29,589 nt of DNA from a virus (IMGVR_UViG_3300037454_000478:122449-152037), one strand, 5' to 3'; shown: positions 2,380 through 28,564, numbered from the stretch's first letter. Notes: a model not told the origin generated them from the sequence alone. Translations and numbers: made by a program.

Positions 2380-3342
2380 ATGAAAGATCTATTTAGCTAT
2401 ATAATGGAAGCCCTCCCGTACAATACGGCCAAGGAATACGTCAACATTAAACGTGATAAAAAGGCTGAAGGGTATATGATGGCGTTTTTCGATGAACTTG
2501 GTAAGTATGCCATGGAGCATGGTGGAAAATACTCACGCAACAAATACCGTATTTACCTTCCATACAAGGGGCCATCAATTGACGTTGCCGCCGATGATAG
2601 TGCTTCCGCCGGTAGCGCATCGGAATGGACAACCAATAGGGAGTGTATCAAAAACCTTGTATCCCTTGCCTTGGAAGAAAAAGGCCAGTGGATTGATAAG
2701 TGGGATTATATAGCAGGTACTGTGGATGTTGCCTTTAAAGACCAACAAGGTAACGTCAAAGTACGCCAGGGTCAAAAAATCGGTAGAATTATTTCAAAAG
2801 ATACTATACCTACCGCCCGGGGAAATGTGTCCGCATTGGATATATTCTCGAATGACCCGATTAGAATGGGTAAGAGCATCAGGTCTGCCATTAGTGGAGG
2901 GGATCTTTGGTTGGTAATTTCAAATCACGCCTACGATATTGCCGGTATGTCCACCAATAGAAATTGGACATCCTGCATGAATATCTTTAATGGTATAAAT
3001 AAGGAATATGTTGAAAACGATATCAAATACGGCACTCTCGTTGTGTATGTTATTGATAAGAATGATACCAACATCAATCAACCATACGGTCGTGTCCTTA
3101 TTAAACCATATAAACTCCAACGTACTGGTTATATTGGTACAGATGCTGCACCCATTATATATGCGCCGGAGCCAACAGTTTACTCCCCATACGTGGGTAT
3201 GAATCCGATTCGCGATTGGTTAAAGGGTATTTGCCAAGAACTTCAAGAAGGGGATGGAAAATTGAGAAGTCTCCGGGTATTATATAATGACAATTTCCAT
3301 GATAAATCCGACCCGGAGTTTCATGGAAGACGCCGTAAATAA
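2380..3342 (+). CDS. Hypothetical protein with capsid-targeting-like N-terminus (putative internal head protein)
   Basis: 320 aa ORF starting MKDLFSYIME|A; C-terminal half contains YDIAGMSTNRNWTSCM and YGRVLIKPY. Confidence 0.75.
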   Translation: MKDLFSYIMEALPYNTAKEYVNIKRDKKAEGYMMAFFDELGKYAMEHGGKYSRNKYRIYLPYKGPSIDVAADDSASAGSASEWTTNRECIKNLVSLALEEKGQWIDKWDYIAGTVDVAFKDQQGNVKVRQGQKIGRIISKDTIPTARGNVSALDIFSNDPIRMGKSIRSAISGGDLWLVISNHAYDIAGMSTNRNWTSCMNIFNGINKEYVENDIKYGTLVVYVIDKNDTNINQPYGRVLIKPYKLQRTGYIGTDAAPIIYAPEPTVYSPYVGMNPIRDWLKGICQELQEGDGKLRSLRVLYNDNFHDKSDPEFHGRRRK

Positions 3343-5536: not shown

Positions 5537-5569
5537 GTTAATTTTTTGCGATACTGGTTTATATATAGG
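5537..5569 (+). promoter_or_regulatory. Phage promoter class GTTAA-N17-TTATATA, copy 1
   Basis: GTTAA 5537-5541, 17-nt spacer, TTATATATAGG 5559-5569, then AAAGGAAAGGAG (5574-5585) and ATG 5592. Confidence 0.7.
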
Positions 5570-7039: not shown

Positions 7040-8066
7040 ATGTGGTCTTGCAGGCATCGACCATTTTATCATAAATCGGTTTTAGCTTCTTTGGGAGTAA
7101 TTTCCGGCACACGGAATCCACATTAAGTATTTCCGTATGTTCCATCACCATATCGTTGGTTTCCGTGATATACATCATGTTCGTATTGAAGTTATCATTG
7201 AGCTCCTTCAAAATATCCTTATAATCATCAACATGATTGGCCCGGATCTGTACTTCAACATAGTCGTCCTTTTTAATATCCAATGTTTCCCACTCCCGGA
7301 GCATATGTTCCGAGATGGTGAAGAAATGTATTGAGGATCTAATCGCGTGGAATTTAATGGCAATATCACCAACATGTATTCCGTCATATTCCCGGTTCAT
7401 TGTCCAAAATCCGCGCTCGGAATTGGTGTCCATGAAATCAATCGGATACGATGCTCCGGTTACCAATAGAAAATCCTCCCAGTTTATTGTAGGTTGATGG
7501 ATGTGTCCGGTGACCAACGGATAACCTTTGATCAATTTTCCGATTGCCGGATTCATGTGGAAAGGATCCGTATGGGTAAATATCATATTATTATGTGGAT
7601 CCTTATCTTTCAATATATCCGCCAGCATATCCGGGTTGTGGAATATGAACCACGGAATCATTATAATTCCGGCATATTCCGCCGGTTGGGTATTGACGTA
7701 GGTAATCCGGTTGAATTTGGGAAGCATAAGGGTGGATGAATAATTGTTTTCCGATTCCCATTGGTAGTAATAGTCGTGGTTTCCGCCTATAATGTACATA
7801 TGGGCCGTATTACGAGCTTCATTCATAACAGTATTCATCCGATCCATCAATTTTTCCACGGATTTATATACCATTGGATTGATGGATGAACGACTATCAA
7901 ATAAGTCACCCACATGTATCACTATGGTTTCGTCATAAGTCTTCACGGATTCCTCAACATACCGGATGATCTCCATAAATCCGTCCGTTTGGTGTTTTAG
8001 CCAAATCATGGAGTTATTCCGGGCACCAAAATGGGTGTCTCCGATAATTACTATATTTTGGGTCAT
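7038..8066 (-). CDS. gp47: Mre11/SbcD-like recombination nuclease (T4 gp47-like)
   Basis: Metallophosphoesterase motifs GDTHFG, GDLFD, GNHD, FTHTD and GHIH. Start moved to ATG 8066 (MTQNIVIIGDTH) because the upstream in-frame stretch overlaps a small ORF. Confidence 0.92.
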   Translation of the reverse strand: MTQNIVIIGDTHFGARNNSMIWLKHQTDGFMEIIRYVEESVKTYDETIVIHVGDLFDSRSSINPMVYKSVEKLMDRMNTVMNEARNTAHMYIIGGNHDYYYQWESENNYSSTLMLPKFNRITYVNTQPAEYAGIIMIPWFIFHNPDMLADILKDKDPHNNMIFTHTDPFHMNPAIGKLIKGYPLVTGHIHQPTINWEDFLLVTGASYPIDFMDTNSERGFWTMNREYDGIHVGDIAIKFHAIRSSIHFFTISEHMLREWETLDIKKDDYVEVQIRANHVDDYKDILKELNDNFNTNMMYITETNDMVMEHTEILNVDSVCRKLLPKKLKPIYDKMVDACKTT

Positions 8067-8070
8067 GTAT

Positions 8071-8214
8071 TCATTTTTTATTTGTACGAGTACGCTTGAA
8101 ATCATCATCCTTGGAAGGATCGATTATATCGTTCCACTTCTCATCACATTCAAGCGTATGGTGCGGAAAGTCTATTACTTCCTGCGTTGAAATCTTAATC
8201 GGTACACTTATCAT
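8071..8214 (-). CDS. Small 47 aa protein between gp46 and gp47 (not in the ORF track)
   Basis: MISVPIKISTQEVIDFPHHTLECDEKWNDIIDPSKDDDFKRTRTNKK*. ATG lies 1 nt after the gp46 stop and TGA lies 4 nt before the gp47 start. Confidence 0.6.
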   Translation of the reverse strand: MISVPIKISTQEVIDFPHHTLECDEKWNDIIDPSKDDDFKRTRTNKK

Positions 8215-8215
8215 G

Positions 8216-9829
8216 TTATTTTACCATGTTTATTATCGAATACTCCGATACTCCGGCATGCATAACTACCTTGATAACACCGTCAAGGTATTGTGGATTG
8301 ATTGGAGAGTGTGAAATTAGGAACATCACATCCCGGTCATCAAGGGTATCCCGTAGTAAACCACACATTGTATCTCGGAGATCCGCATCTATGTTTCCTA
8401 TAAGTTCATCAAGGAAATACAGGTTAAAATCAATTTGTGTGATGAATGTTTTGATAAACGCCAATATGATAATCATATCGATCACCTTCTTTTGTCCGGT
8501 GGACAAACTGGATATTGGCATCATCTCCCCATACGGATTTTTCATCATACACTTGAAATTCTCATCATAATTAATTATGTAATTTTGATGGGCCAATTTG
8601 AGGTAATTATCAATATGGGTGTTGATGGACGGAATTATGGAGGATATGATGGTTGGTCTCACCGTATCACGGATGAAATCAATCATTTCTTGGTACTCCT
8701 GTATGTTTCGTCTCAATTCATCAAGCATCTTATTTGATTCCTTGATCGTTTGATTATGACGTTCCTTTTCCGTCTTGTGACGTTTGATTATCTCAACATA
8801 TTGTTTTGTCTTAAACTTCTCCGCATTGAGGCTGGTGAGGTAATCATCGAGTTTCCCCTCCTGTTCACTCATTTCACCTTGGAAGTCAAGTACCGCCTTG
8901 CAATCCTTCTCGGAGATTTCATTTAGCCGGATTTCGTCCTTTTCCAATACGGTGAGTTCCTGCTGGAGATGTTCCTTGTGTTTTTCATCTATTGGTTGTC
9001 CGCATAATGGACAGGTTGCTCCGGATAGTTGTTTGATGGACTTTTTCATTTCCTTCATTTTACTAACAACCACCCTATGTTCCGCAACACTTCCATCCGC
9101 TATGCCATTAAGTCGCCGGAGCTCTTTCCGGTTGGCTTCACGGATATCCCTGAATTCTTTTTCCTTCTTTTCAATCAATTGATTGATGGCATCCAACGAA
9201 ACATATGTAGGTATCTCCGGCAATAACCGGTCAATGGTATCAATTGAGGCCTGTGCTGCTCGTTTATCGGATTCGATTTGTGATACTCTTATATTAATAT
9301 CTTTGATCTGCTCCTTGCACCATTCCTCATATGCCGTTAGTTTATCAAACGATATGGTTGAATTTAGGAAATCCCTGGATTCCTGTGTATTAAGGGTTGA
9401 AAGCGATTTGAAGTTATTAAATGATATAACACATAGTAATTCCAGGGTTTGACGAGGAATGTCATACCATTCATTTTCAAGTATACCTTGTATGGAACGT
9501 TTATCGGAGGCAATGACCTCCTCCCCATCGGCAGTGGCTGTCAATGGAGATTGTCCGTATGCGTTAATCTCCCGGCGGATATATATACGGGTATTTTTAC
9601 AATACACCCAAGTTTCCACCAATGCATGTTTCTTACCCCATGATATAAGGGATTCATTTGTTTTACCACGGACAGATCCGAACAATCCATATATTATTGC
9701 TTCACCAATGGTCGTTTTTCCTACTCCAACTGCTCCACTTATCTCCCATAAACCATTCATTTCCTGAAAGTTAAGGTCAAGTTCCGATATCGACTTGAAG
9801 TTGGAAAGCCTTATCCTATCAATCTGCAT
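8216..9829 (-). CDS. gp46: Rad50/SbcC-like SMC ATPase (T4 gp46-like)
   Basis: Walker A GAVGVGKTT, coiled coils around zinc hook CPLCG, ABC signature LSTGQ, Walker B YFLDE and H-loop ISH. Confidence 0.93.
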   Translation of the reverse strand: MQIDRIRLSNFKSISELDLNFQEMNGLWEISGAVGVGKTTIGEAIIYGLFGSVRGKTNESLISWGKKHALVETWVYCKNTRIYIRREINAYGQSPLTATADGEEVIASDKRSIQGILENEWYDIPRQTLELLCVISFNNFKSLSTLNTQESRDFLNSTISFDKLTAYEEWCKEQIKDINIRVSQIESDKRAAQASIDTIDRLLPEIPTYVSLDAINQLIEKKEKEFRDIREANRKELRRLNGIADGSVAEHRVVVSKMKEMKKSIKQLSGATCPLCGQPIDEKHKEHLQQELTVLEKDEIRLNEISEKDCKAVLDFQGEMSEQEGKLDDYLTSLNAEKFKTKQYVEIIKRHKTEKERHNQTIKESNKMLDELRRNIQEYQEMIDFIRDTVRPTIISSIIPSINTHIDNYLKLAHQNYIINYDENFKCMMKNPYGEMMPISSLSTGQKKVIDMIIILAFIKTFITQIDFNLYFLDELIGNIDADLRDTMCGLLRDTLDDRDVMFLISHSPINPQYLDGVIKVVMHAGVSEYSIINMVK

Positions 9830-9894
9830 TATTTCATGGTCAATTTCTTTACATAGTTAATATATGAGAACTTATAAAAAACTTAAATATATAC

Positions 9895-9925
9895 GTTAAT
9901 ATAGTGCAATTTCCGTTTATATAGG
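9895..9925 (+). promoter_or_regulatory. Phage promoter class GTTAA-N17-TTATATA, copy 2
   Basis: GTTAA 9895-9899, 17-nt spacer, TTATATAGG 9917-9925, AAAGGAAAGGA 9932-9942, ATG 9950. Confidence 0.7.
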
Positions 9926-9949
9926 TACATAAAAGGAAAGGAAAACACC

Positions 9950-10786
9950 ATGAATACCAAGGTTAACACAACGATCATCAAGGAGACCGAAAAAGCCTAT
10001 CAGCTCACCGTTGAGTACTGGACCTCCGACACTGCCCCTATCAAGACCGCCACTATGTGGGTTCCCAAGAGCCAATGCACCGTGGAGGCCGGCCAAGTCA
10101 CCGAGATCGCCGACTGGATCCTGAACCAGTGGGTTGCCCAACGCAATGATTATATGAAGAAAAACGGCTATTCCGACCATCGTCACTCCATCTGCTTCGA
10201 CATGGCTGAATACGAGCATATCAAGGCCGTGAAGAAGGCCAAGCAGGAGGCTTTTAAGGCCGAATTACAGGAAACCCTCGAGGCCACGGTCGCCTACGTG
10301 AAGCCCTACGCCGATCGTTACATGAGCGAGTTGGCCCATGATGCACAGTTCATCTATGACAACTATAAGGATTCCGGCATCCTTCCGGCCGAGATCGTGG
10401 ACGCCATCAAGGATATCGCCGCCGAGATCTCCAAGGTGTTTGGCTCCACCGCCGCTGTCGTTGGAATCAGCAAGGAGATCGCTGATTCTTGGTGGGACAC
10501 CTTCGTTGAGAAGCACAGTACATTTGAATCCGTTCGCGATTACCTTTGGTTTGAGCTCGGTGAACACCGCTGTGTGTACGGAGTCAACATTTTTGGATAC
10601 GAGACCCGTAACAAAATCAAGCTGGGTAACGGAATGCCGGTCAGCGAAAACATGCTTTCGCAGGTTATCGGTGGTACCACCGACCCCAAGGACACATTGC
10701 TTGGTAAGAAGTTCAAAAAGAACTGGGATCTCTACAACAGATTCATCGACATCGTGAACAGAATGTTTTACCTCACCAAAAAGTAA
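9950..10786 (+). CDS. Hypothetical protein (likely early); small N-terminal ETEKA...WVPKSQ domain
   Basis: 278 aa ORF with promoter and SD-like motif; C/G-ending codons are visibly preferred. Confidence 0.8.
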   Translation: MNTKVNTTIIKETEKAYQLTVEYWTSDTAPIKTATMWVPKSQCTVEAGQVTEIADWILNQWVAQRNDYMKKNGYSDHRHSICFDMAEYEHIKAVKKAKQEAFKAELQETLEATVAYVKPYADRYMSELAHDAQFIYDNYKDSGILPAEIVDAIKDIAAEISKVFGSTAAVVGISKEIADSWWDTFVEKHSTFESVRDYLWFELGEHRCVYGVNIFGYETRNKIKLGNGMPVSENMLSQVIGGTTDPKDTLLGKKFKKNWDLYNRFIDIVNRMFYLTKK

Positions 10787-12108: not shown

Positions 12109-12522
12109 ATGAAAAATCTCGAAACATGTATAATGGAAGCAAGTTTGGATAAGGATTTTCTCTATGATATCCTTATCTCCGTTATTGAGAATAACAGAAC
12201 GGTTTATGATAAATGCACGGCATTGGCCGCAGCTATCGCCAAGAAGGCAAACCGTGGTGAACGTCCTGATTTCAATTATCTTGCAGAATCTTCCGCAGTT
12301 GATAAACTCGTTGCGGATGCCTTCAAGATTTATGTTGCCGAGTACAGTTCCCCGGGTATGCGCCTTGGTACTGCCGAACGCAAGGAACTCAAAAAGTGGC
12401 TTGCCGCCAGGGTATTCCATATCCTTGAGGATGAAATGGATGGTCTCACAGAGGATGAAATCAAGGCCTTTGAAGATAACCCATATTACAGCGCTGGTAA
12501 CTTTGGCGACATCTATAAATAA
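12109..12522 (+). CDS. Putative internal head protein (CTS-like N-terminus)
   Basis: 137 aa, starts MKNLETCIME|A. Confidence 0.7.
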   Translation: MKNLETCIMEASLDKDFLYDILISVIENNRTVYDKCTALAAAIAKKANRGERPDFNYLAESSAVDKLVADAFKIYVAEYSSPGMRLGTAERKELKKWLAARVFHILEDEMDGLTEDEIKAFEDNPYYSAGNFGDIYK

Positions 12523-12533
12523 ATCGTTTACCC

Positions 12534-12995
12534 ATGAAATCACTATACGAATATATCGTGGGTGAATCCGCTCGTCCTGATTGGGGGCCTGCCGTGGAGG
12601 ATTTTTTGAAGAAGGTTAAAAAATATGTGGATCTCACCAAAAACCCATATGAAAGCGGCGGTTTCATTGAGTATCAGGCTAAATTCTGCCCTGTATCTTT
12701 ACGCGTAAGAACCGCATTATATATCAGCGAGCCACAGCTACCAAGATACACGTATATGCCTGCCAGTGCAGGAGAAGATGCCGATATACAAATCAGATTG
12801 TTGGATCATATCTCTCCGGCCAAGAATAATTTTGAAAAGGCTCTTTTCAATAAATTCAAGGAGCTTGGTGTAAGGGAAGCAAACCGGTGGAATTGTGCCC
12901 AGTGGGGTACATGGAAATTCATCCCAAGAGACCCGGACGAATTGGTTAAAATGACCAAAGTAGTGGTGGATCTTATGAAGAAATACAAACTATAA
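12534..12995 (+). CDS. Putative internal head protein (CTS-like N-terminus)
   Basis: 153 aa, starts MKSLYEYIVGE|S. Confidence 0.7.
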   Translation: MKSLYEYIVGESARPDWGPAVEDFLKKVKKYVDLTKNPYESGGFIEYQAKFCPVSLRVRTALYISEPQLPRYTYMPASAGEDADIQIRLLDHISPAKNNFEKALFNKFKELGVREANRWNCAQWGTWKFIPRDPDELVKMTKVVVDLMKKYKL

Positions 12996-13001
12996 TTGTA
13001 T

Positions 13002-13469
13002 ATGAAAACATTATACGAATGCATCAATGAAACACTTGGCTATCCGGAGATCATCAAACCGGGGTTGGATAAATTCTGCCGTCAAATATCCAAAACATTG
13101 GAAAATGTGGATGTCGAGGAGTTTTTCAAACTTTTTGGGGAAACCTATAAAGACCAACCAAGAAAACCGGATTCGTGGCTTCGTGGTGGTACCGGATGTT
13201 TTTCGGATGATGCAACGTGGGCACTCGTGCATGGGTACTTGTGCTATGACAATTATGGTGATTATGTGAGCTTCTTACACAAGCCAACAGATGCACAACT
13301 TGCCAAGGCAACGGAATACTTGGAGAAATCGGTAAAGAAGCTTTTGGGAGAGGACAAGAAACTTTGGAAATCATTTGATACAAAAGTCAGGGTATATGTC
13401 CTCAAATACAACTCATATTACCAACCAAAAGGTACTTACGGTATTGGAGTTGACTTTACCTTTAAGTAA
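13002..13469 (+). CDS. Putative internal head protein (CTS-like N-terminus)
   Basis: ATG 13002 preferred to the track TTG at 12996; starts MKTLYECINE|T. Confidence 0.7.
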   Translation: MKTLYECINETLGYPEIIKPGLDKFCRQISKTLENVDVEEFFKLFGETYKDQPRKPDSWLRGGTGCFSDDATWALVHGYLCYDNYGDYVSFLHKPTDAQLAKATEYLEKSVKKLLGEDKKLWKSFDTKVRVYVLKYNSYYQPKGTYGIGVDFTFK

Positions 13470-13544: not shown

Positions 13545-14231
13545 ATGGGAATATTTGATAAAGCAAGACAATGGCGTGAAAAACGTAAGGCCATAAAGCA
13601 AAACAAGACAAATCAAAAGGTCGAGGAGAACCTCCCACAGGAGGCCGGGCCGAATTATTCCCTTATTAAGCAGATCAAGAAAACCCCATACTATAGCAAA
13701 TCACCTTCGGATGGCGATTCAAATGCACGTAAGTTTATCACCGATCATGTAGCCGCCGGCGGTGCCGGAAATATTGTTCCGGGTCAACTTATACTTTTTG
13801 AATATTTCGAGCCAAAAACAAAGGAGGAACTTGAATATTATGATGCTTCACCTTGCACAATATTCTTTAATGTGATCAATACAAAGGATGGAAAACGTGT
13901 CCTTGGTTTCAATATACATTATTACCCTCCAAAAATGAGACAGCAGGTAATGAACCGGATATTTGAGATATACAAACCAATATATACCAAATACTTCAAA
14001 TCCGGAGCCAAAGCATCCGTGGATGCATTTGATTATAGGTATCTCATTGCCGCATTGGAAAAGGCTGGGCTCGGATTTGGTGTCCGTATGTATATCCCCA
14101 ATCTTATCGGGCAGATATGGAAAGTTCCGCCACAAATGTGGCATATTGCGGTATTTACGGAAGGATGGTTTAAGAAACAAACCCGTACCGCAATATTAAG
14201 GTACTGGAACCAATGGAGAAAAAAGCACTAA
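13545..14231 (+). CDS. gp2: DNA end protector protein (T4 gp2-like)
   Basis: GQLILFEYFEPKTK...YYDASP...LGFNIHYYPP...R pattern and C-terminal RMY...W, as in gp2 homologues. Confidence 0.8.
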   Translation: MGIFDKARQWREKRKAIKQNKTNQKVEENLPQEAGPNYSLIKQIKKTPYYSKSPSDGDSNARKFITDHVAAGGAGNIVPGQLILFEYFEPKTKEELEYYDASPCTIFFNVINTKDGKRVLGFNIHYYPPKMRQQVMNRIFEIYKPIYTKYFKSGAKASVDAFDYRYLIAALEKAGLGFGVRMYIPNLIGQIWKVPPQMWHIAVFTEGWFKKQTRTAILRYWNQWRKKH

Positions 14232-15675: not shown

Positions 15676-17625
15676 TTATTCTTCATCATCCTTCTTGGGT
15701 TTTTTCTTATTACCTTTATCGCCCTTTTTGGATGGTTTTTTCTTGCCTTTTTCCGGTTCGTCATTACCGTCCGATTTCTCGGATGAAGCGAAACCTTCGA
15801 CAACCGGTCGGTTATTCCTTTTATCTCTTAACTTCATCTGCTCCAATATCATGGATTTGACCTCTTCAAGCTCCTGCCTGATGGATTCAAATTCACCTCC
15901 ACTTTCATCATCGCTACCGGCAAGGTTAAGTTGCTCAATTTCCTCCTGCTTGTACTTTTCATTGAGCTTGATATCAGCATCCGACAAGTGTAAGTACTTC
16001 TGTACAAGGAATTTACTCGAGAAGTATTTGATTTCGTTACCCTCCTTGTCCATATCAATCATAGACTCCTTCATGTTTTGGATGAACTCAACGCGTTTAT
16101 CCATTAACTGAATCTGCATAAGTTCCTCGAAAAGGTTATATGATTTATATTGGACTTGGATACATGTTTGGAAATCCTTGACCGTTTGCATATCAGGGAT
16201 ATCCAAGCAGAGTTGTAACCACATTGGTTTAATGATGATTTGGGAGAATACATTACGTTGGCGGGCAACATAACGGCCAAAATCAATCTCCGAACGAAGG
16301 TAACTATCGGCATCCGTACCGAACCAGTTTTGGTCATTATCGTGGTCGAAACGATTTATAGGAATGTTGGAAACACCATATAGTTGATTCTTGAAGTATT
16401 TCAAGTAATCACTATCCATCAATTCCGGGCCATCTCCACCAAGGGTATCGATTTCCGGTGTACCGGCCTCGGATTCCGGCATCCAATACTCTTTGTTAAA
16501 TGGCATTTGCGCCTGTCCGTTGATGGTGAGCTCGCCAGTATCGGAGATAAATTTAATATCCTCACGATAACGATTCATGGCGGCGTTAAGGGTTTGGGAA
16601 CCACGGGCACGGTTCATACCTTTCACCGGAATAGTGAATTTCGTACGATATTGTGCGTTGGTAACCACCCAAATGATTTGTGCCTGCTCAATGATACGAT
16701 AAATATTATACGGGCGGACAAGACGTTCGAGATATGATAAACGCGAAATCGACTGTGTTTCTTGGAATTGGATATAAATGACCTGTGAATCAAGGAGTTT
16801 ACGTTCTTTACCATTGATACCGGCGAATTGAATCCAATACCATTTATCGTTTTCAAACTTCTTGGTAAGCGTAGCCGGATCGATAGGAACAAGACCAATG
16901 ATTTGGGTTGGCTTCTCCAACGAATCGTATACGATCTCAAACGCAATGATACCTTCAATCAACCAACGTTTGAAATCATCCCATGCCTTTGTACGCCATC
17001 CGAGCATACGATAGAAGCGTTTGAATGACTTGGTAATCGAATCATTGATTTTGTTTTGGATATCCTTGGAGAAATCAATCAAATCATTGTCATCAATATA
17101 CGGCTCCATGAAATACACATAGTTGGAATCGTATACGATGGATTCGTTTGTCATCTTATCAAGAATGTCCTCCAATTCCGGCTGCATGGCCAAGGCACGA
17201 AGTTGATCCCTCTTGGTGGTGAAATCCTTTTCAAAGAAATTACGATCCTTGTTGTCTTTCACCTTCCATGCGGAAAGAAGTTGATTGTATAGGGATGATG
17301 TGACTTCTTGCTTATCTTTCGGAAGAAGGTCTTTATCAGCCGGAAGGGCGCGCATGTTTTTAATCACCTGTTCATCCAACGACATACCCAAACGAGCCAT
17401 GTTCGAGAAGAATTTATTGATGGTTCGTTTGGATTTCTTCTCCTTCGCCGCAATTTCCGCCTGTGAGTATTTAGGTACATACCTCATCGTTTCCTTAAAA
17501 CCGGGAATGTTTGTGGTTTGACGATGATGGTCGGCTTCCGTCACATAGTCAAGAAGTCCCATATCATGGGCTTCATACAATGTTCTGAACCCAAATTCGG
17601 CGTCCTGTGATATATTGCTTTCCAT
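15676..17625 (-). CDS. gp20: Portal protein (T4 gp20-like)
   Basis: RPYNIYRIIEQAQIIWVVTNAQYRTKFTIPV, EYWMPESEAGTPEIDTLGG and YFKNQLYGVSNIPINR align with gp20 motifs; charged C-terminal tail. Confidence 0.9.
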   Translation of the reverse strand: MESNISQDAEFGFRTLYEAHDMGLLDYVTEADHHRQTTNIPGFKETMRYVPKYSQAEIAAKEKKSKRTINKFFSNMARLGMSLDEQVIKNMRALPADKDLLPKDKQEVTSSLYNQLLSAWKVKDNKDRNFFEKDFTTKRDQLRALAMQPELEDILDKMTNESIVYDSNYVYFMEPYIDDNDLIDFSKDIQNKINDSITKSFKRFYRMLGWRTKAWDDFKRWLIEGIIAFEIVYDSLEKPTQIIGLVPIDPATLTKKFENDKWYWIQFAGINGKERKLLDSQVIYIQFQETQSISRLSYLERLVRPYNIYRIIEQAQIIWVVTNAQYRTKFTIPVKGMNRARGSQTLNAAMNRYREDIKFISDTGELTINGQAQMPFNKEYWMPESEAGTPEIDTLGGDGPELMDSDYLKYFKNQLYGVSNIPINRFDHDNDQNWFGTDADSYLRSEIDFGRYVARQRNVFSQIIIKPMWLQLCLDIPDMQTVKDFQTCIQVQYKSYNLFEELMQIQLMDKRVEFIQNMKESMIDMDKEGNEIKYFSSKFLVQKYLHLSDADIKLNEKYKQEEIEQLNLAGSDDESGGEFESIRQELEEVKSMILEQMKLRDKRNNRPVVEGFASSEKSDGNDEPEKGKKKPSKKGDKGNKKKPKKDDEE

Positions 17626-18866: not shown

Positions 18867-19436
18867 TTAAGCGTCATCATCATCTGCCCAGTCGGAAGCG
18901 AACTTAACAGTGATATCGACAAGATCTTGAGCATTGTAATCAAGATCCTCAACACCGGCAATACCACCAACCATGATCATATCATGGAAGAGGATTTGAC
19001 GGTAAATATCACCGGCGCGGTTGGCGATCACGATCTTGAACCAATCTGCGCAATATTCTTCTTTAAGGGTTGTTTCGCCGGTTGCCTTGTTGTAACAAAG
19101 GTTGTTCCATGCACGGAAGATCTTATAGATGTAGTTGTCCGTACGCTTACGAAGGTTAAGCGAAATTGTAACCGTGATTTCATGGGCCGTATCATCGAGC
19201 TTGGATTGGAGATACGTACGGGTGGTACCCATGAACTTTTGTGTTGTCTTCTCAGGGCCTTTATCGAGAGTTCCAAGACCTTCCACCTTCTGCACCTGTT
19301 CCGTTAGAACTGCAACATCGCTGCCAAAACGTGCCATAAGTGCCTCCGGGATGGTGAAGTACATCTCGAACATATTTTTGTAGTTAGGATCCTGACGATT
19401 GTTTCCTGCCTGACTATTCTTAATGTGTGGAAGCAT
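18867..19436 (-). CDS. gp19: Tail tube protein (T4 gp19-like)
   Basis: 189 aa; N-x-FE-x-YF, Q-x-FMG-x-x-R-x-Y, WNNL and terminal F-x-x-DW, as in T4-like tube proteins. Confidence 0.75.
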   Translation of the reverse strand: MLPHIKNSQAGNNRQDPNYKNMFEMYFTIPEALMARFGSDVAVLTEQVQKVEGLGTLDKGPEKTTQKFMGTTRTYLQSKLDDTAHEITVTISLNLRKRTDNYIYKIFRAWNNLCYNKATGETTLKEEYCADWFKIVIANRAGDIYRQILFHDMIMVGGIAGVEDLDYNAQDLVDITVKFASDWADDDDA

Positions 19437-19496: not shown

Positions 19497-19955
19497 TTAC
19501 GCATTAATACCATCATCACATACTCCAACAACTCCGTATCGTATTGTTGACTCCGGTGTTACCACGGTAGATACCATTGGGATTTCAATGGCCTTTACCG
19601 GGGTATCATTGTCCTGTCTACGGGAAATTGCAATGGCAAATGCACCATTATGAGCGGTTGTGCAGTATTCGAGGTTATTATGCGACATTACCTCATTCCA
19701 ACTATGTGGTAAAACGGTATTTGGAGCGGTAGCAAGTCGACGATTGTATACAATTTGTTCCCACAAGGACTTGGTTAACTTGGTACCGGTAACAATATAT
19801 ACTCCATCATCCATCAATTGCATATGGGTATCGGTTAATGCGCCCCAATGCATGTTATACCAACGGGTAAGTGTATCGTTTGTACCGATATGTTGGTTTG
19901 TATTTTGGGAAGCAATCAAGGGATGCTCCTTCATTATATCCTGAAATGTTTTCAT
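19497..19955 (-). CDS. Hypothetical protein (weak CTS-like start)
   Basis: 152 aa, MKTFQDIMKE|H; tiles within the operon. Confidence 0.65.
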   Translation of the reverse strand: MKTFQDIMKEHPLIASQNTNQHIGTNDTLTRWYNMHWGALTDTHMQLMDDGVYIVTGTKLTKSLWEQIVYNRRLATAPNTVLPHSWNEVMSHNNLEYCTTAHNGAFAIAISRRQDNDTPVKAIEIPMVSTVVTPESTIRYGVVGVCDDGINA

Positions 19956-19988: not shown

Positions 19989-20342
19989 TTAGGCGCCGAA
20001 ACTCTTGTTGAGGATACCAACGAGCTTACCCCATTCACCCTTTTCGACATCTTCTTTATTGTCGGAAAGAATGCCATCGAGGGTCTTGTTCATCTTGTCC
20101 TTGTCGAGCTTGTCACCAAAAACAACCTTGAACTTGTTTTCAGCGTAATCGCGGAAACTCTTCTCGTCCTTGATGGATTCACTGACCTTTTCCTGTTCCT
20201 CCTCTTCGGATTCACAGCCCATGCGGATGGCCTTCAAGCGTTCTTGTTCCTCTTCTTCGTTCTCCTTTTTGAAAGTGCCACAACCAGGGCATTCCTTACC
20301 TTCCATAAGGGATTCGCTTATAAATTCAACCAAACTTTTCAT
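19989..20342 (-). CDS. Acidic putative prohead core or internal protein
   Basis: MKSLVEFISE|S, Glu runs and further candidate [ILV]-x-E sites. Confidence 0.7.
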   Translation of the reverse strand: MKSLVEFISESLMEGKECPGCGTFKKENEEEEQERLKAIRMGCESEEEEQEKVSESIKDEKSFRDYAENKFKVVFGDKLDKDKMNKTLDGILSDNKEDVEKGEWGKLVGILNKSFGA

Positions 20343-20368: not shown

Positions 20369-20755
20369 TTATGCGGACATATTGTCCAAAAGTTTCTTAA
20401 TTTCCGGTTTACCACCTTTCACACTATATATGGTGTTTGTGAGAAGATCAATGATCTCTTCCAAAACATCAATACGTTTGTTTTTAGGTAGGTCACCCCA
20501 GTAGAACGTAAATTTGACGCATTCTTCTCCGTCAACGTATTTGATTTCACATTTGACTTCGGTATCAAGTATCACACCACAATCGTTAAGATTTGCCGGG
20601 TACTTTTTATAGAATGCGTTGGCTATAGCCTTGTAATCATTCTTGGAGAGATCATCATTGGGAATCCAAGCACCATTATCGATGAAATCGATCGTGGTAC
20701 CCATTTGCCACTGGGTTTGCATGGCTTCCGAGATATATTCAGCTAATGATTTCAT
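20369..20755 (-). CDS. Putative internal head protein (CTS-like N-terminus)
   Basis: 128 aa, MKSLAEYISE|A; TAATG coupling with the upstream gene. Confidence 0.7.
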   Translation of the reverse strand: MKSLAEYISEAMQTQWQMGTTIDFIDNGAWIPNDDLSKNDYKAIANAFYKKYPANLNDCGVILDTEVKCEIKYVDGEECVKFTFYWGDLPKNKRIDVLEEIIDLLTNTIYSVKGGKPEIKKLLDNMSA

Positions 20756-21183
20756 TATTCACTTGTTTCTTTTTCTTTATAAATAATAACAGGTTTATTT
20801 TGCGATCGTTCAAGTGCATTTCGAAGGTTATCATTTTCGGATTGTAAGTTTCTATTTGAACGTTCGCAAGCGCGTAAACTGCCATTAAGTATCAAAATCG
20901 AATCATGTAACTCCTGATTGCTTTGTTGTAGAAAATCAATGGTTGTTGCAGAGTGTTTGTAAGTATGTAGATCTCCATTAAGTATCAGGATGGAATCATG
21001 CAATTCGTGATTGGATTGCACAAGAGAATCAATGACCTCCCGATTACCTTTTACCTCGAATAAATGATTTTGGTTGCGGGAGCACTTCGAACATGTTTGC
21101 ATACAGAACAAACATATAAATATGATGGCCACCCACCTCCATGTTTTCAACGGATTTTGTTTAAGTATGTTTAATAGTTTCAT
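20755..21183 (-). CDS. Membrane-anchored coiled-coil protein with an internal 31-aa-period duplication
   Basis: N-terminal TM segment WRWVAIIFICLFC; IDSLVQSNHELHDSILILNGDL and IDFLQQSNQELHDSILILNGSL repeats; ATGA overlap with the sigma gene stop. Confidence 0.75.
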   Translation of the reverse strand: MKLLNILKQNPLKTWRWVAIIFICLFCMQTCSKCSRNQNHLFEVKGNREVIDSLVQSNHELHDSILILNGDLHTYKHSATTIDFLQQSNQELHDSILILNGSLRACERSNRNLQSENDNLRNALERSQNKPVIIYKEKETSE

Positions 21184-22619
21184 TCCGCTACAATATTATG
21201 TGTTTTGAAGTTCTCGGAAAGCTCACTCATCATATTGATGAGGTCGATATCCGACTTGCGGCGGATACATTCCGTTGGATATACATTTTCAAGAAAATTC
21301 ACAACAAAGCCACGGTTGCCATCATAATGCTCATCAATATAGTTGATGTCATTTTCAAGGCAGCTGATAATGAAATCCTGCCCGGCTTCACTTAATGGTT
21401 GGATTGCACTACCCATGGCATTATTGAATACCTTACGGTTTGCCCAACGGGTACATTCCTGAAGCATGATAAATACGTTATCCGTAATCATGGCATCCAT
21501 GATTGTTTGTGCGGTATGGGTTGCAATAAGTGATTCGGAGTACATGGAAAGGAGATCCATGAGGAGATTAACAGTCCTCTTATCGGATTTGAGGAATGTA
21601 ATGATGTGTTTGATATACATGGAAACAGCCGCACCTGTGATACCCATTTCCTTGGCAATCTCAACACCGGACATTTGTTTATACCCACGGAGGCCAAAAT
21701 ATTTGTAGAACACACTTGCGGTACGAACGGAGAACTTATCATCAATAAGTTTATACACCTTATCCCATTGGGTTTTGGTGTCTCCTTTGAATGCATCATT
21801 ATCGCTTGATAGTGCAGTCATTCTATCGACCAACGTTTGGCCTTCATCATCCAGTGTTTGATCCACGGAGACCGTGTTGAAATTGCCTTTGGTATTACCT
21901 GCGGCCTTATTCTTTTCGTATTCATATTGGGAAATCCTAACGGTACGGGATAATTCATTAATATCGTTAAGGATTTGGAAGCGGATACGCCACCCAGCAT
22001 ATTGTTTGAACGTAAGGTTCTTTTGTTTCTTGACCTCTGCTTTTGCCTCCTTATCAAGTCCATCCTCCATGTCAACAAATTCATCCGGACGGTGATAATC
22101 ACTCATAGCTTTGGTGAGACCCAAATAACCGGCACTAATCAAACTATTCCAATCCAGTCCGGAACCACGATACTTGCTTGCAATTGCGGTTACAAGGCTG
22201 GCGTATTGACGGGCACAACGCTCACGTCCTTTTTCAGTTTCAAGGTCAAGTGTGATATCACCAATATCACGTTTGCCTGATATAACATTATTGAAATCCT
22301 CGGCGGTCATCAATTGGGGGAGACCCTTGATTTCAGGTTTGCATTTGCCGGCAAGTTTTCGGATTTCTTCATATATTGCCGGGGAGCCACCATACTGGGC
22401 GATTATCGCCTTAATCCTTGATGACGATCCATTGATGATTTCATCAAGTACCTCGCCACTTGTTATACCAAGCTGGATTGTATTAACGAGGATTTGGAGA
22501 TATTCTTTTGATATTGATTTGCTTCCACGAACTATCTTTTCAAATTCCTTGATCTGTTCGATGGTGAGCTTGTTCCACTCCCTACGGGACTCCGCAATTA
22601 TCTCGGTAAATAACTTCAT
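21180..22619 (-). CDS. Sigma70-family RNA polymerase sigma factor with N- and C-terminal extensions
   Basis: Region 2: YASLVTAIASKYRGSGLDWNSLISAGYLGLTKA...TFKQYAGWRIRFQI...SRTVRI. Region 3.2-like VSVDQTL. Region 4 HTH: YFGLRGYKQMSGVEIAKEMGITGAAVSMY. Confidence 0.88.
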   Translation of the reverse strand: MKLFTEIIAESRREWNKLTIEQIKEFEKIVRGSKSISKEYLQILVNTIQLGITSGEVLDEIINGSSSRIKAIIAQYGGSPAIYEEIRKLAGKCKPEIKGLPQLMTAEDFNNVISGKRDIGDITLDLETEKGRERCARQYASLVTAIASKYRGSGLDWNSLISAGYLGLTKAMSDYHRPDEFVDMEDGLDKEAKAEVKKQKNLTFKQYAGWRIRFQILNDINELSRTVRISQYEYEKNKAAGNTKGNFNTVSVDQTLDDEGQTLVDRMTALSSDNDAFKGDTKTQWDKVYKLIDDKFSVRTASVFYKYFGLRGYKQMSGVEIAKEMGITGAAVSMYIKHIITFLKSDKRTVNLLMDLLSMYSESLIATHTAQTIMDAMITDNVFIMLQECTRWANRKVFNNAMGSAIQPLSEAGQDFIISCLENDINYIDEHYDGNRGFVVNFLENVYPTECIRRKSDIDLINMMSELSENFKTHNIVAE

Positions 22620-22771
22620 AGTTACTTATTTGGTTTCTTTTATATTAGAACATACGTCTATACAATAATTATAATCATTTTATTTGAATAGTGTAAGGAT
22701 TTATCTGCAAAAACCCTAAAAGTCCTTTTACAAACGACTATTTTTTTCCCAAGTAAAATAATATATCGGTC

Positions 22772-23209
22772 ATGTTCGGTACAATACGTAACTATTTTGT
22801 GGTCAAACATCTGTTAAATAAGATTTATGACAACGAAAAGATCGAAGAGAATCTTTCGCGCACTTTTGGGGTTGAATGTAAACGCGATTGGGTAGGTCGT
22901 TTATATATGGTTGTCAATCCAATACTTCAAAATATTGAAGATGGAGGTAATACGATTGTCTATAACAAGGATGATAAGATGATGATTGAGATGTGGGTTA
23001 TGAAAAACCTTGAACTTATCAGGAATTTTGTTGTAAATAACTCCATGTTCGATCTGCTTACCTACTCCATTGAGCGGCTTGATGATGATGAAAATTACCT
23101 CATCGTGTTCAAAAACATTTATTTTGACGATATTATCAAAATCTGTAAGTGGTCTGCCGCTATAATTGCAGCCGGATTGCTCACAGGACTTGGTTTCTTA
23201 ATCTTTTAA
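22772..23209 (+). CDS. Hypothetical protein with C-terminal membrane anchor
   Basis: 145 aa ending WSAAIIAAGLLTGLGFLIF. Confidence 0.75.
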   Translation: MFGTIRNYFVVKHLLNKIYDNEKIEENLSRTFGVECKRDWVGRLYMVVNPILQNIEDGGNTIVYNKDDKMMIEMWVMKNLELIRNFVVNNSMFDLLTYSIERLDDDENYLIVFKNIYFDDIIKICKWSAAIIAAGLLTGLGFLIF

Positions 23210-23234
23210 TTGAATTAAATAAACATTTCGAGAT

Positions 23235-23885
23235 ATGTTACAACTTATTAATCGTGAAGATTACTCCGGTAGAGACCATAACGAGGTCATGGCTGAATTT
23301 CAAAAGATCGTTGACTCATACGGTGACGATATTAAGGATATGACCCTTGAACAATGTAGGGAGGAGGAAAAGCGCCTCATCGCCATCATGGATGAACATG
23401 ACAAAAACATGCTTGGTGTCGAATACGAACTTCCAAAGACCTGCAAGCTTATGGGATCCGCCAGCAGCATCACCCGTAAGGCCATCGGTGGTTATATTTG
23501 CGAACTCCTCGATAAGGTGGAATGCGAATATCAATACACCCTCGGATACTTCCAGCTCTATCAGTGGTGGAAAAACCCACAGGACAAGATTTCGTACAAT
23601 AACCTCAACAGCACGCTTCAGGTGCTCGGCAACAACATGCGTTTCCGTGGTTCACATCAGTGGCAGATGATTCTTTCCATCAACGAGTACTTCAAGCCTC
23701 TCCACAACGCATACATTATCGACAATATGCTCACTCATCTTTACGGCGCCTGCCACAGCAAACTCCTCGACAAGATGAAGATCGATAACCCGATTGCCCC
23801 GGATAACACTCCGGCCCCGGAAGCCCCAGCCCCGGAAGCCCCATCGTTTGAGGAAAGCCAAGGTGAAGCCGCCCAAGAACAATAA
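23235..23885 (+). CDS. Hypothetical protein with Pro/Ala/Glu-rich tail
   Basis: 216 aa; 15-nt tandem duplication GCCCCGGAAGCCCCA at 23814-23843 (APEAP x2). Confidence 0.8.
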   Translation: MLQLINREDYSGRDHNEVMAEFQKIVDSYGDDIKDMTLEQCREEEKRLIAIMDEHDKNMLGVEYELPKTCKLMGSASSITRKAIGGYICELLDKVECEYQYTLGYFQLYQWWKNPQDKISYNNLNSTLQVLGNNMRFRGSHQWQMILSINEYFKPLHNAYIIDNMLTHLYGACHSKLLDKMKIDNPIAPDNTPAPEAPAPEAPSFEESQGEAAQEQ

Positions 23886-23934: not shown

Positions 23935-23967
23935 GTTAAGTATGGAGGTGTTCAGATTATATATAGG
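23935..23967 (+). promoter_or_regulatory. Phage promoter class GTTAA-N17-TTATATA, copy 3
   Basis: GTTAA 23935-23939, 17-nt spacer, TTATATATAGG 23957-23967. Confidence 0.7.
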
Positions 23968-24455: not shown

Positions 24456-24488
24456 GTTAATATCCCGGGTGTTCCGTTTATATATACC
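24456..24488 (+). promoter_or_regulatory. Phage promoter class GTTAA-N17-TTATATA, copy 4
   Basis: GTTAA 24456-24460, 17-nt spacer, TTATATATACC 24478-24488, AAAGGAAAGGAG 24494-24505, ATG 24512. Confidence 0.7.
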
Positions 24489-25726: not shown

Positions 25727-26946
25727 TGGTATTTAAGTTCATTTATGAGAGCCCCACAATCGGTTCTCCTTGTAATAAAATACAACAATATAGGATTACG
25801 AATATCATTGTACGAAAATACCGGTAATGATAACATTTCATCAAACCCATTGATATTATCCAGTTTATGAACATTTTCAAGGAACATCGCATATACGAAC
25901 ATTGCCGGGCCGACTATCTTGTTTGAATTATAACATTGCACCATGTATTCGATATTTGGTTCACCCTCATAAATTGATGGGTTTTCCATGATATTCATCA
26001 ATATGTTTTGAAAATTATCAAGGGGAATGGACAATAAATGAGTGATGCCATCATACATCGAAAACGATATGTATAGGTTATTGTCATCACGACACATACC
26101 ACAGGTATATTCCATACAGTCGCTCACAAACCTAAATGGTTCGCTTACCCATATTTTGTTCATATCCCCATCATACATGACAAAATAATGGTTATATACC
26201 CAATGTTCGTATGTATCGTTTCCAATATATCTGTGGGATGTGTGGCAAATCGATAGATATCGGTCATCATTAAGTCGGATGATTTGAGTTGAACCACTTA
26301 ATGCGAAGGTAAACTCCGGAGTTTGAATTTCGTTTATAATTGTCGGGTTATTGATATCATCAGCCTCCTGTAATTCGTCAATGTTCAGCGTGAGTACCGC
26401 CGATTTATCCGGATCATACATGAACGTAAATGGTTTACCTTCGATGGGTTGCCAGTTCTTCTCCATACGTTTATCTGTATTTATAAACCATGTACGTTTT
26501 ATTGTGAAATCATCACCATATTCGACCAACTGTGTAATTACCTTACCTTCGACAATGTCAGGTCTACACCCAACACCATAAAGTATATCATTCCACACGA
26601 TAAGACGGATATCCTCCAAACCCTTGAATGATTGACCGCCCAATATAAACGAATTTTCACTTATGTTTTCATGTAATACCTTATCCGAATCAATTGGGCC
26701 TATGACATTATACGATGTGATTCCCTGAAATCTATTAAAAAGTAGGATGTATGAGAGTTTATCCTGCTTTGACAATGGAACATACATGTAATTCGTAAGG
26801 CGAGTGTTGGAGACGATATTTCCTTTATATGAGGTTATTGAGATATTTGTCGTTGCCCGGAGATTCCCATCGGAATCTTTATACGGGGAAATCAATGGTC
26901 TGCACGACCCACCATTTTGAATGCAAATATTTGAAAGGTATTTCAT
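25723..26946 (-). CDS. Five-bladed beta-propeller carbohydrate-active protein (GH130/GT91/GT108-like), paralog 2
   Basis: GLEDIRL, EKNWQPI, LSGSTQ, YNHYFV and SEPF...MEYTCGM. Confidence 0.6.
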   Translation of the reverse strand: MKYLSNICIQNGGSCRPLISPYKDSDGNLRATTNISITSYKGNIVSNTRLTNYMYVPLSKQDKLSYILLFNRFQGITSYNVIGPIDSDKVLHENISENSFILGGQSFKGLEDIRLIVWNDILYGVGCRPDIVEGKVITQLVEYGDDFTIKRTWFINTDKRMEKNWQPIEGKPFTFMYDPDKSAVLTLNIDELQEADDINNPTIINEIQTPEFTFALSGSTQIIRLNDDRYLSICHTSHRYIGNDTYEHWVYNHYFVMYDGDMNKIWVSEPFRFVSDCMEYTCGMCRDDNNLYISFSMYDGITHLLSIPLDNFQNILMNIMENPSIYEGEPNIEYMVQCYNSNKIVGPAMFVYAMFLENVHKLDNINGFDEMLSLPVFSYNDIRNPILLYFITRRTDCGALINELKYQ

Positions 26947-26962
26947 ATCATAGTACGTTTAT

Positions 26963-28564
26963 TTAAAGTATGCGTCTATCATCATTATAGTCCTTGTCGA
27001 ATTGTTTATGAAGATCCTTGGCGGCTTCATAATATTGCGACTCCCATAAACAATCCTGATACAATGATCTGATCGAATCATGACTATAGTATATGATTCC
27101 TTTTTCGTCATCCAACCTTTCAACCGCCATATTTGCAAAATACAAGGCTTCGATCATCCGGCTACGGCATTTATAAAACATTGCAGCGGCCATATAGGCT
27201 TCCGGTCGGCGAGGATCGCACATAATAGTATGCATCCACATGGAAATTTCATGGTTATCCCTGTGACCTAAATCGGCAATGCATCGAGCGGCCATAAATC
27301 TTTCGGCATATGTATAATCGAACAATTCAGCCGAATGGGTGAACACACAATATGCAGCCGCGTATAGTTTATTGTTGAAATACATCATACCTGTATCAAA
27401 CAACTCCTTCTGTATCATATCCTTATTTATATCAATAACCGGTTCAAATACATTGAGGTATTTAGGATACCCACCATTGTTGAAAACAAATGCATATTCA
27501 TTATCTGCATATCTTACCGATTCATCATTGAATATGAATTTCCGGATAACCTCCTCATCAACGGTCATGAGAAATACAAAGTTATCCTCAATTGCAAATG
27601 GTATATAGAATTTTCCATCGTGGTATTCAAGTCCACAGGTGAACTCAACACTGTAATTTGCGAAACTGAACAACGGGGACATTTTTACGATGTTCCAATC
27701 ATTATCCCACAACACGAATACATGGCAATAACGGGCAAATTTCCGGCCTGATGCCGTAAGCCATAATTCACAAGTATGTACAAGAGTCAACCAATAATCA
27801 CCCCAACGGATAACTTGTGATGATCCACGAAGTAAATCAAATCGTTCATCAGCCAATCCTTCAACACGTTCCTTACGAATAACCTCTTCTGTTTTACCGG
27901 TTTTTGGATTTGTTTTCACAACCACAGTTGGGTTGGCAAGCTGTACATAATGATATGGCATGTCCTTGATAGGCATCCAGTTCTTTTCACAATATGATTC
28001 CTCATTAAGCGCCTTTACCTTAACCCGGGTGATCTCCTTGAAATCCCCATCACTTATATGCATAAGTTCCATACGTCCACGGCCATTTCTATTGTCATCC
28101 CTACGAACCCCAGTGGTATATAATTTACCATCCCAACGAACAATACGGGCATCTTCTTCCCCTTGGAACTCCCATATAGGTTTGTAATCATCTGTTTTTA
28201 TAAGTTGGAATGTCCATGGGTCGGTTTCGGGATTTTTATTGGTACCTATAAAGTTTTGTGTTTTAAGATTCCGTCCATCCTCTTCGGGTACACTATAAAA
28301 TACCGGGCCCCATCCACTCCAATTTTTAACCGGATCAGTTGCACCATGAAGCACATAGTTGACATTTCGTATGATCATCTTGAATGTTTGATCCTGCTCA
28401 TCCCACATGATGGATGGATTACACCAACCCGGCCACATTGCATCATGTATATCTAAATCCATAGGGATCACTGTTGCACCGCCCATGAGACAATAATTCA
28501 CGAAGTATTTCACATCAGGTTCCTGAAGTAATATTGGGTTTTGAGGTTTTGGAAATGATATCAT
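26963..28564 (-). CDS. Five-bladed beta-propeller carbohydrate-active protein with C-terminal TPR-like helices, paralog 1
   Basis: NPSI, GEEDARI, EKNWMPI, LRGSSQ, YCHVFV and SPLF...VEFTCGL; TPR-like DPRRPEAYMAAAMFY...EALYFANMA. Confidence 0.65.
   Translation of the reverse strand: MISFPKPQNPILLQEPDVKYFVNYCLMGGATVIPMDLDIHDAMWPGWCNPSIMWDEQDQTFKMIIRNVNYVLHGATDPVKNWSGWGPVFYSVPEEDGRNLKTQNFIGTNKNPETDPWTFQLIKTDDYKPIWEFQGEEDARIVRWDGKLYTTGVRRDDNRNGRGRMELMHISDGDFKEITRVKVKALNEESYCEKNWMPIKDMPYHYVQLANPTVVVKTNPKTGKTEEVIRKERVEGLADERFDLLRGSSQVIRWGDYWLTLVHTCELWLTASGRKFARYCHVFVLWDNDWNIVKMSPLFSFANYSVEFTCGLEYHDGKFYIPFAIEDNFVFLMTVDEEVIRKFIFNDESVRYADNEYAFVFNNGGYPKYLNVFEPVIDINKDMIQKELFDTGMMYFNNKLYAAAYCVFTHSAELFDYTYAERFMAARCIADLGHRDNHEISMWMHTIMCDPRRPEAYMAAAMFYKCRSRMIEALYFANMAVERLDDEKGIIYYSHDSIRSLYQDCLWESQYYEAAKDLHKQFDKDYNDDRRIL

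Follow-up and report, generated by a model that had tools for sequence, protein, structure and literature searches.

We describe a sigma-70-family factor, sigma1, which is encoded on the minus strand of the viral sequence IMGVR_UViG_3300037454_000478:122449-152037 and which may be packaged in the phage head by means of an N-terminal leader peptide, cut there and ejected together with the DNA. We put this reading forward tentatively, as a little short of evenly balanced, because the sigma leader is atypical for its genome and does not follow a leader switch seen in two related genomes (G002 and G003), and because the assignment of promoters is a guess with two sigma factors present. The whole stretch of DNA that was analysed, called the window here, has a length of 29,589 nucleotides and makes up the final 29.6 kb of an IMG/VR record of 152 kb, which was judged to be 68% complete. 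The open reading frame (ORF) of sigma1 and its parts are the following:

21180-22619, minus strand: sigma-70-family factor sigma1, with the leader at residues 1-10, an N-terminal helical domain at about 20-125 and region 2, which carries an insertion, at about 128-240
Same ORF, minus strand, C-terminal half: low-confidence linker at 225-279, region 4 at about 280-345 and a helical extension at about 347-479
22590-22619, minus strand: codons of the leader MKLFTEIIAE, with the proposed cut after E10 that would leave SRREWNK as the mature N-terminus

The original prediction, made from the DNA sequence alone, had placed a sigma-70 factor at this locus, and profile as well as fold matches identify the 479 residue product as a genuine member of the sigma-70 family. 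The protein starts with MKLFTEIIAESRREWNK, and its ATG is the earliest possible start, two codons past an upstream stop. Sigma1 matches phrog_351 with an E-value of 2e-14. With a profile built from 65 sigma1 homologues, RpoD/SigA chains of the PDB were recovered at E 2e-19, and regions 2 and 4 aligned separately. The match over about 128-240 corresponds to the Sigma70_r2 feature, and the helix-turn-helix of region 4 is found as a second hidden Markov model domain (positions 206-342), which aligns with RpoD 429-567. Searched as a single sequence, sigma1 stays below the Pfam threshold (Sigma70_r2 E 1.7e-4; region 4 weak with E 0.047), and precomputed Pfam matches to r2 or r4 are recorded for some of the homologues.

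The AlphaFold2 model of sigma1 has a mean predicted local distance difference test (pLDDT) score of 78.5, and the best 50 Foldseek matches in the PDB are all sigmaA/sigma70 chains with a probability of 1.00. The template modelling scores of these matches are low, since off the polymerase the domains adopt a different arrangement. The poorly modelled linker sits where region 3 would be, and the helical C-terminal extension comprises about 130 residues. The predicted function of sigma1 is to bind core RNA polymerase and to initiate transcription at specific promoters. The record contains a second sigma-70-family gene, sigma2 (329 residues, record positions 49071-50060, plus strand), for which both Pfam regions r2 and r4 score above threshold. 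Sigma2 has an ordinary, leaderless N-terminus and lies in a plus strand block that also contains a GIY-YIG gene and a thymidylate kinase.

Translation of the sigma1 ORF confirms the start MKLFTEIIAE|S that had been read from the DNA. Six of these ten residues (M1, K2, E6, I8, A9 and E10) are identical in the capsid-targeting sequence (CTS) of phage T4, MKTYQEFIAE. The prediction had relied on the T4 peptide as the one which directs internal proteins into the prohead, in agreement with published work (PMC8442874), and the CTS, which receives a single cut by the gp21 protease, is sufficient to load foreign proteins into the head (PMC8442874; PMC3012670). The cleavage site that had been cited for gp21, [IL]-x-E, likewise agrees with the motif L/I-x-E given in the literature (PMC9026906). 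It is kept at the end of the sigma leader, where I8-A9-E10|S11 fits the motif before a small residue. The T4 proteins gp24 (MAKINELLRE|S) and gp22 (MLKEQLIAE|A) have N-termini of the same design.

Homologues with unconserved N-termini had been named as counter-evidence to a functional leader, and the opposite was found: the leader is the best-kept part of the first 120 residues. Among the 65 homologues, which reach down to 31% identity, the mean frequency of the top residue is 0.66 for residues 1-10, compared with 0.33-0.51 in the next eleven blocks of ten residues. The pattern M-K-x-F-[TS]-x-I-[IVL]-x-E-[SA]-[RK] is kept by 152 of the 197 family members that have at least 340 residues, and many of those without it are mis-called starts or near variants. 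There are two registers, with the glutamate at position 10 or 9, and in both of them P3 is I, V or L, P1 is Glu, P1' is S, A or G and P2' is usually R or K. The codons of the leader vary synonymously among orthologues. In the sigma1 model, residues 1-10 form a short helix outside any domain and have a pLDDT of 47, which is what a linear motif would be expected to show. The exhaustive profile search for the family returned 161 clusters with E-values below 1e-30 (at 50% identity the family comprises at least 160 clusters); most of the core-only sigmas of about 210-240 residues from the same search are without the leader peptide.

The leader is shared with other proteins of the phage. About 27 ORFs of the record, seven or eight of them within the window, begin with the T4-CTS-like decapeptide M-K-[STP]-L-x-[ED]-[YF]-I-x-E. 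With the first 12 residues removed, the bodies of these proteins show no pairwise BLASTP similarity at E 1e-3, and a Pfam search with ten of the largest ones gave no domain. The leader codons differ synonymously and the DNA upstream of the leader genes is unrelated, which therefore argues for selection on the peptide and not on the DNA. These observations support a real leader family that acts at the peptide level. The earlier observation that sigma1 starts with the decapeptide of its small neighbours is confirmed, with the caveat that its own leader is a divergent one, which scores 6.8 bits on the family matrix of the genome compared with 31-36 bits for the core members. It ranks 19th among 200 N-termini. 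In a control with internal methionines, two of 707 sites came near or above the sigma score, one with 22.9 bits, which is probably a real start, and one with 5.8 bits. Leader genes are concentrated on the minus strand (20 of 27, compared with 56 of 200 for all genes, p 1e-7). Those on the plus strand of the window include the following, listed with an adjoining gene:

2380-3342, plus strand: leader protein of 320 residues, starting MKDLFSYIME|A
12109-13469, plus strand: three consecutive leader proteins (MKNLETCIME|A, MKSLYEYIVGE|S and MKTLYECINE|T), directly upstream of a gp2-like gene
13545-14231, plus strand: gp2-like DNA end protector, adjoining the three leader genes

The T4 DNA end protector gp2 is a head-internal, injected protein.

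Copies of the leader, methionine included, are also found at the C-terminus of three enzyme-like proteins, so the tag seems to be portable to either end. These are a DUF5856-like protein (record G000, 1707-2132, minus strand) that ends with GG-MRPLFDYIKESFFTEE, a nucleotidyltransferase-like protein (record G000, 26090-27010, minus strand) that ends with C-MEPLSTYLLEAFNNMPL and a cytidylyltransferase-like protein (record G000, 52026-52637, plus strand) that ends with RP-MKSLYEYLMMK. An even more uniform leader, MK[HST][IL]xESIIGR[KR]G, begins 25-35 genes per about 110 kb in the relatives G002 and G003 (loci L029-L040). The arrays there consist of ORFs of 105-160 residues, several of them directly downstream of the sigma gene.

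The gene set of the record is T4-like, with a portal protein (phrog_213), a large terminase (TerL), gp46/47-like nucleases and a Gp23-type major capsid protein. The closest capsid proteins are those of the Sphingomonas/Sphingobacterium phage PAU, the Tenacibaculum phages pT24 and PTm1, the Chryseobacterium phage MA9V and the Prevotella Lak phages. The phage is a large, uncultured PAU/pT24-like jumbo phage from gut or rumen, and its capsid protein relatives (for the host assignment of PAU see PMC3738902) point to a host that most likely belongs to the Bacteroidota. A tblastn search with the sigma and a megablast search with 10 kb against 50,697 phage records gave zero matches, so the sigma family is known from metagenomes only. 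No phage RNA polymerase was seen in the 152-kb record.

A prohead protease of the S77 type is found in relatives of this phage. The 'prohead core scaffold' of pT24 contains Peptidase_S77 above threshold, and proteases are annotated in PTm1 and in PAU (as capsid maturation protease in the latter). The PAU protease gp151 sits among gp149, gp150, gp152, gp153 and gp154, all of which start with MKT[LI]xQLYE, and two of the tagged PAU proteins were annotated by the depositors as scaffolding and internal capsid protein. A pattern search for leader starts gave 14 hits in PAU, all on one strand, compared with 0 in the control. The relative G005 encodes a sigma homologue as well as an S77-scaffold fusion, which is flanked by five leader-type small genes on the same strand. 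By N-terminal sequencing, the major capsid protein of PAU is matured from 585 to 520 residues (PMC5646251). The cut falls next to L62-M63-E64, and the capsid protein of the phage studied here keeps I38-H39-E40|G at the aligned upstream site. Together these data support the presence of protease machinery in the lineage, with S77 genes embedded among leader genes in PAU and G005. When the S77 protease domain was modelled in complex with residues 1-40 of the sigma, the prediction had a score of 0.00, which speaks neither for nor against binding.

Lak-C1 and LR756500 gave weak matches to the sigma core only. The Lak-C1 ORF, when read with TAG as Q, starts with MRVINKKKALYNSLMEGISRSLRNTLNED, a long helix of the K-x-LY type. 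A DNA pattern for the Lak leader matched 9 times compared with 3 times in the control and is too weak to be used.

The genes around sigma1 are arranged as follows:

22772-23885, plus strand: orf145 and orf216, which diverge from the adjacent sigma gene and are retained in each of the five relatives
20755-21183, minus strand: ORF142, with an N-terminal transmembrane segment and a repeated coiled coil (LQQSNQELHDSILILNG twice), leaderless; kept in G001, G002 and G003
20369-20755, minus strand: L128, with the leader MKSLAEYISE|A
19989-20342, minus strand: L117, with the leader MKSLVEFISE|S; always follows the sigma gene
19497-19955, minus strand: L152, with the weak leader MKTFQDIMKE|H; synteny kept in G001, G004 and G005
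18867-19436, minus strand: tail-tube-fold protein of 189 residues (phrog_32623)
15676-17625, minus strand: T4-type portal protein (phrog_213, E 2.7e-74)

As the original prediction had described, sigma1 heads a minus strand block with three leader genes upstream of the tail tube gene. The order is sigma1, ORF142, L128, L117, L152 and the tail-tube-fold gene, with the portal gene farther along. The start of ORF142 overlaps the sigma stop by 4 nt; in appearance its product looks like a spanin or an anchor and unlike a classical anti-sigma factor. The identity of the 189 residue ORF was settled by a fold search: neither a phmmer search of the PDB nor a BLASTP comparison with T4 gp19 reached significance, and its AlphaFold2 model (pLDDT 79.8) matches T4 gp19 (5w5f), the KP1 tube and other tail-tube chains in Foldseek.

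The order sigma-L117-L152 together with the divergent orf145/orf216 pair is kept in the five relatives, G001 to G005, the sigmas of which are 30-61% identical. The C-terminal 60 residues of L117 (WGKLVGILNKSFGA) have 63-73% identity in relatives with the sigma at 30-32%, and L117 may act with the sigma as a partner or regulate it. An ESM Atlas search with L117 gave chance-level matches only. On a 377-kb contig, leader-type small genes and a transmembrane protein likewise come after the gene for a distant member of the sigma family. The intergenic region between the sigma gene and orf145 (window positions 22620-22771) contains a pair of a T-run and an A-run (GTTTTTTAAGG...AAAAAACTT), which is conserved in most of the five relatives and could be an operator or a bidirectional signal.

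An abundant promoter class of the record, class A, has the form TTGTTAAG-N-TTTATATATA with the variant TTGTTAAG-N-GTTTCGTTTATATATAnnTGnAAA, which we write as GTTAA-N17-TWATATA. It is present in 26 copies, all on the plus strand, compared with a mean of 0.75 in shuffled sequence. The sites are mostly located about 25 nt before the ATG of small genes, often just after a hairpin. The copies within the window and the element upstream of sigma1 are:

5537-5565, 9895-9923, 23935-23963 and 24456-24484, plus strand: class A promoter copies, with 22 more in the record
22626-22632, minus strand: CAAATAA element, 7-13 nt before the sigma ATG

Class A does not fit the Bacteroidota consensus, and a strict scan of the record for that consensus (TTG-N17-21-TAnnTTTG) found 0 sites within 60 nt upstream of any gene. 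The class also occurs in G001, the nearest relative (16 sites, each on the plus strand), and not in distant relatives, as expected for a promoter that is read by a phage factor. It occurs 0 times before leader genes (p 0.047) and before neither of the two sigma genes. An element of the type (T/C/G)AAATA(A/G) precedes the ATG by 12-22 nt in TerL, in several leader genes and in the genes for capsid protein, tail tube and sigma, and by 49 nt in the portal gene. Copies of the TAAATAA type precede TerL (3355), the portal (17625) and leader genes, and the variants CAAATAA, GAAATAA and CAAATAG precede the sigma, capsid and tail-tube genes. The element may be a late promoter or an initiation signal. 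The TAAATAA type recalls the T4 late promoter TATAAATA and could also be an initiation signal. The context of sigma1, on the minus strand with the capsid, portal and tube genes, without class A and with CAAATAA, points to a protein that may be made late together with prohead components.

The analysis shows that sigma1 is a sigma factor, that the leader family exists and is conserved, and in which gene context it lies; targeting, cleavage, ejection and the promoter assignment are inferred and would be connected as follows. Sigma1 would be synthesised together with the head and tail proteins, and its decapeptide would act like the T4 CTS and dock it in the scaffolding core of the prohead. A gp21-type (S77) prohead protease would then cut after Glu10. 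The mature sigma, of about 54 kDa and starting with SRREWNK, would be retained in the head beside other leader-tagged proteins and would be ejected with the DNA. In the new cell it would bind host core RNA polymerase and direct it to phage-specific promoters, for which the abundant class GTTAA-N17-TWATATA is the best candidate. For the clade as a whole it is possible, if somewhat doubtful, that uncultured Bacteroidota jumbo phages carry their own sigma-70-type factor in the capsid under a T4-like tag that is trimmed by a protease, so that the first transcription would start from phage promoters on the host core polymerase, without a host sigma or a packaged polymerase.

Several observations weigh against a packaged sigma1. 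The sigma leader is a weak match to the genome consensus and a divergent member of the family, carrying L3, F4 and I7 where the consensus has S/T, L and Y/F. The other leaders of G002 and G003 have switched to MKHIxESIIGRKG and the sigma keeps MKLFTEQILES, so there is no co-variation in these two genomes; with the sigma leader and the genome leader type alike in G004, the overall result is mixed. Such constancy of a motif inside a single protein family could mean that it belongs intrinsically to the sigma. Searches of the 68% complete record with PF03420 and the pT24 protease detected no S77 protease. A sigma profile search of the cultured, leader-bearing relatives PAU, pT24, PTm1 and MA9V-2 gave only a match to an Asp-rich stretch of pT24, which was rejected as spurious; these phages lack the sigma, so that none of them provides a direct test. 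That sigma1 reads the class A promoters is a guess with two sigmas present, and the missing third of the genome could hold early promoters of the host type.

In the main rival reading, sigma1 would be an ordinary intracellular phage sigma of the middle or late stage, the N-terminal peptide of which is a family-specific helix for polymerase contact, for a partner such as L117 or for stability, and the likeness to the other leaders would be a coincidence of short amphipathic helices. We consider this a serious possibility but on the whole doubt it. It is favoured by the sigma leader having a consensus of its own (F4, T/S5 and I7), unlike the other leaders, and staying unchanged where those of the same genome change, and the strictly syntenic L117 and orf145/orf216 could be sigma regulators. 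To our knowledge, all characterised phage sigmas, as in SPO1 and T4 (gp55), act after their synthesis in the infected cell. The sigma of a Listeria phage peaks in the middle of the infection (PMC12282133). However, the conserved positions are those of a gp21-type site at residues 8-11, which is kept across a one-residue register shift, and the model confidence at the leader is low. Moreover, the leaderless sigma2 shows that a phage sigma can do without the peptide, and the sigma1 gene sits among leader and structural genes.

The whole leader family, sigma1 included, might carry another address or processing signal, for example for localisation to the membrane or to an assembly site, for chaperone recognition or for regulated proteolysis. 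The capsid role of the tag in this lineage is read from sequence, 25-35 tagged genes per 110 kb, as reached in G002 and G003, are many for head cargo, and the tag occurs at the C-terminus of three enzymes as well. We nevertheless regard such a signal as unlikely, given that the tagged genes cluster around the prohead protease and scaffold in PAU and G005, that the PAU depositors named scaffolding and internal capsid proteins among them, and that the tag has the T4 protease motif at its end; giant phages also pack dozens of processed head proteins (PMC9026906). The evidence for targeting and cleavage would apply equally if the leader sent sigma1 to the prohead or its protease as a sink, where late sequestration or cutting would end its regulon and the virion copies would be idle in the next infection. 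T4 core proteins are indeed degraded and expelled and not injected (PMC9026906), but a lone N-terminal site on an otherwise intact protein is the T4 pattern for retained cargo, such as the internal proteins and Alt, and not for degraded scaffold (PMC8442874). Encoding a protein of 479 residues in a late operon merely for its destruction would also be costly, and we consider a sink very unlikely.

The closest known counterparts are IPI, IPII and IPIII, the internal proteins of T4, on which a CTS of about ten residues is likewise found at the N-terminus of unrelated proteins, ending in I-x-E before a small residue, and is cut by gp21. A T4-type portal, a Gp23-type capsid protein and TerL are also present in this phage, and S77 proteases in its relatives. 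The cargo differs: it would be a 54-kDa transcription initiation factor, whereas the T4 cargo consists of small basic proteins that are DNA-associated or act against restriction. The tagged family is also far larger here (about 27 genes), with the tag at the C-terminus as well. T4 Alt is an ADP-ribosyltransferase which is packaged, is ejected and modifies the RNA polymerase of the host. Like the proposed sigma it is head-packaged, processed by gp21 and retunes the host polymerase toward phage promoters at infection; it modifies the alpha subunit enzymatically and is dispensable, whereas a packaged sigma would replace the specificity subunit itself. The virion RNA polymerases of N4, crAss-like phages and phiKZ/AR9-type jumbo phages solve the same problem, namely early transcription that is free of host promoter specificity, by delivering a whole polymerase, whereas here the sigma alone would be delivered and the host core enzyme used. 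SPO1 gp28 and gp33/34, T4 gp55 and phiEco32 gp36 also redirect the host core polymerase to phage promoters, but these sigmas are made after infection and have no cleavable leader, unlike sigma1 with its leader, its extra N- and C-terminal domains and its late-type gene context.

The ways known for a phage to start its infection are the host holoenzyme on host-like promoters, an injected modifying enzyme (T4 Alt) and an injected whole polymerase (N4, crAss, phiKZ). An injected sigma would be a fourth and cheaper solution to early takeover, and would explain the use of promoters unlike the host consensus from the first minute. The leader peptide would then serve as a sequence rule from which to predict the set of proteins that abundant uncultured phages of gut and rumen inject, and as a natural tag with which proteins could be loaded into capsids of this kind. 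The original prediction had known of no CTS-tagged sigma, and its novelty survives the literature check: searches for CTS together with sigma factors returned T4 reviews only, and those for packaged or injected sigmas returned packaged polymerases and no established packaged sigma. A survey of jumbo phages mentions phage sigmas and not their packaging (PMC7824862). In the Staphylococcus phage fRuSau02 the sigma and an anti-sigma factor were detected in the virion by liquid chromatography-tandem mass spectrometry, which the authors judged to be carry-over, as host polymerase subunits co-purified (PMC5618024). This sigma, detected in a virion preparation, has no targeting peptide.

Leader tags are also seen on enzymes besides the sigma at a T4-like locus on a Logan contig (L052), where a NUDIX hydrolase (9673-10122) starts with MKPFTQYIKEN. 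At the same locus, beside the portal and gp13 genes, a minimal sigma of 249 residues (8001-8750) starts with MKSLFEHILES.

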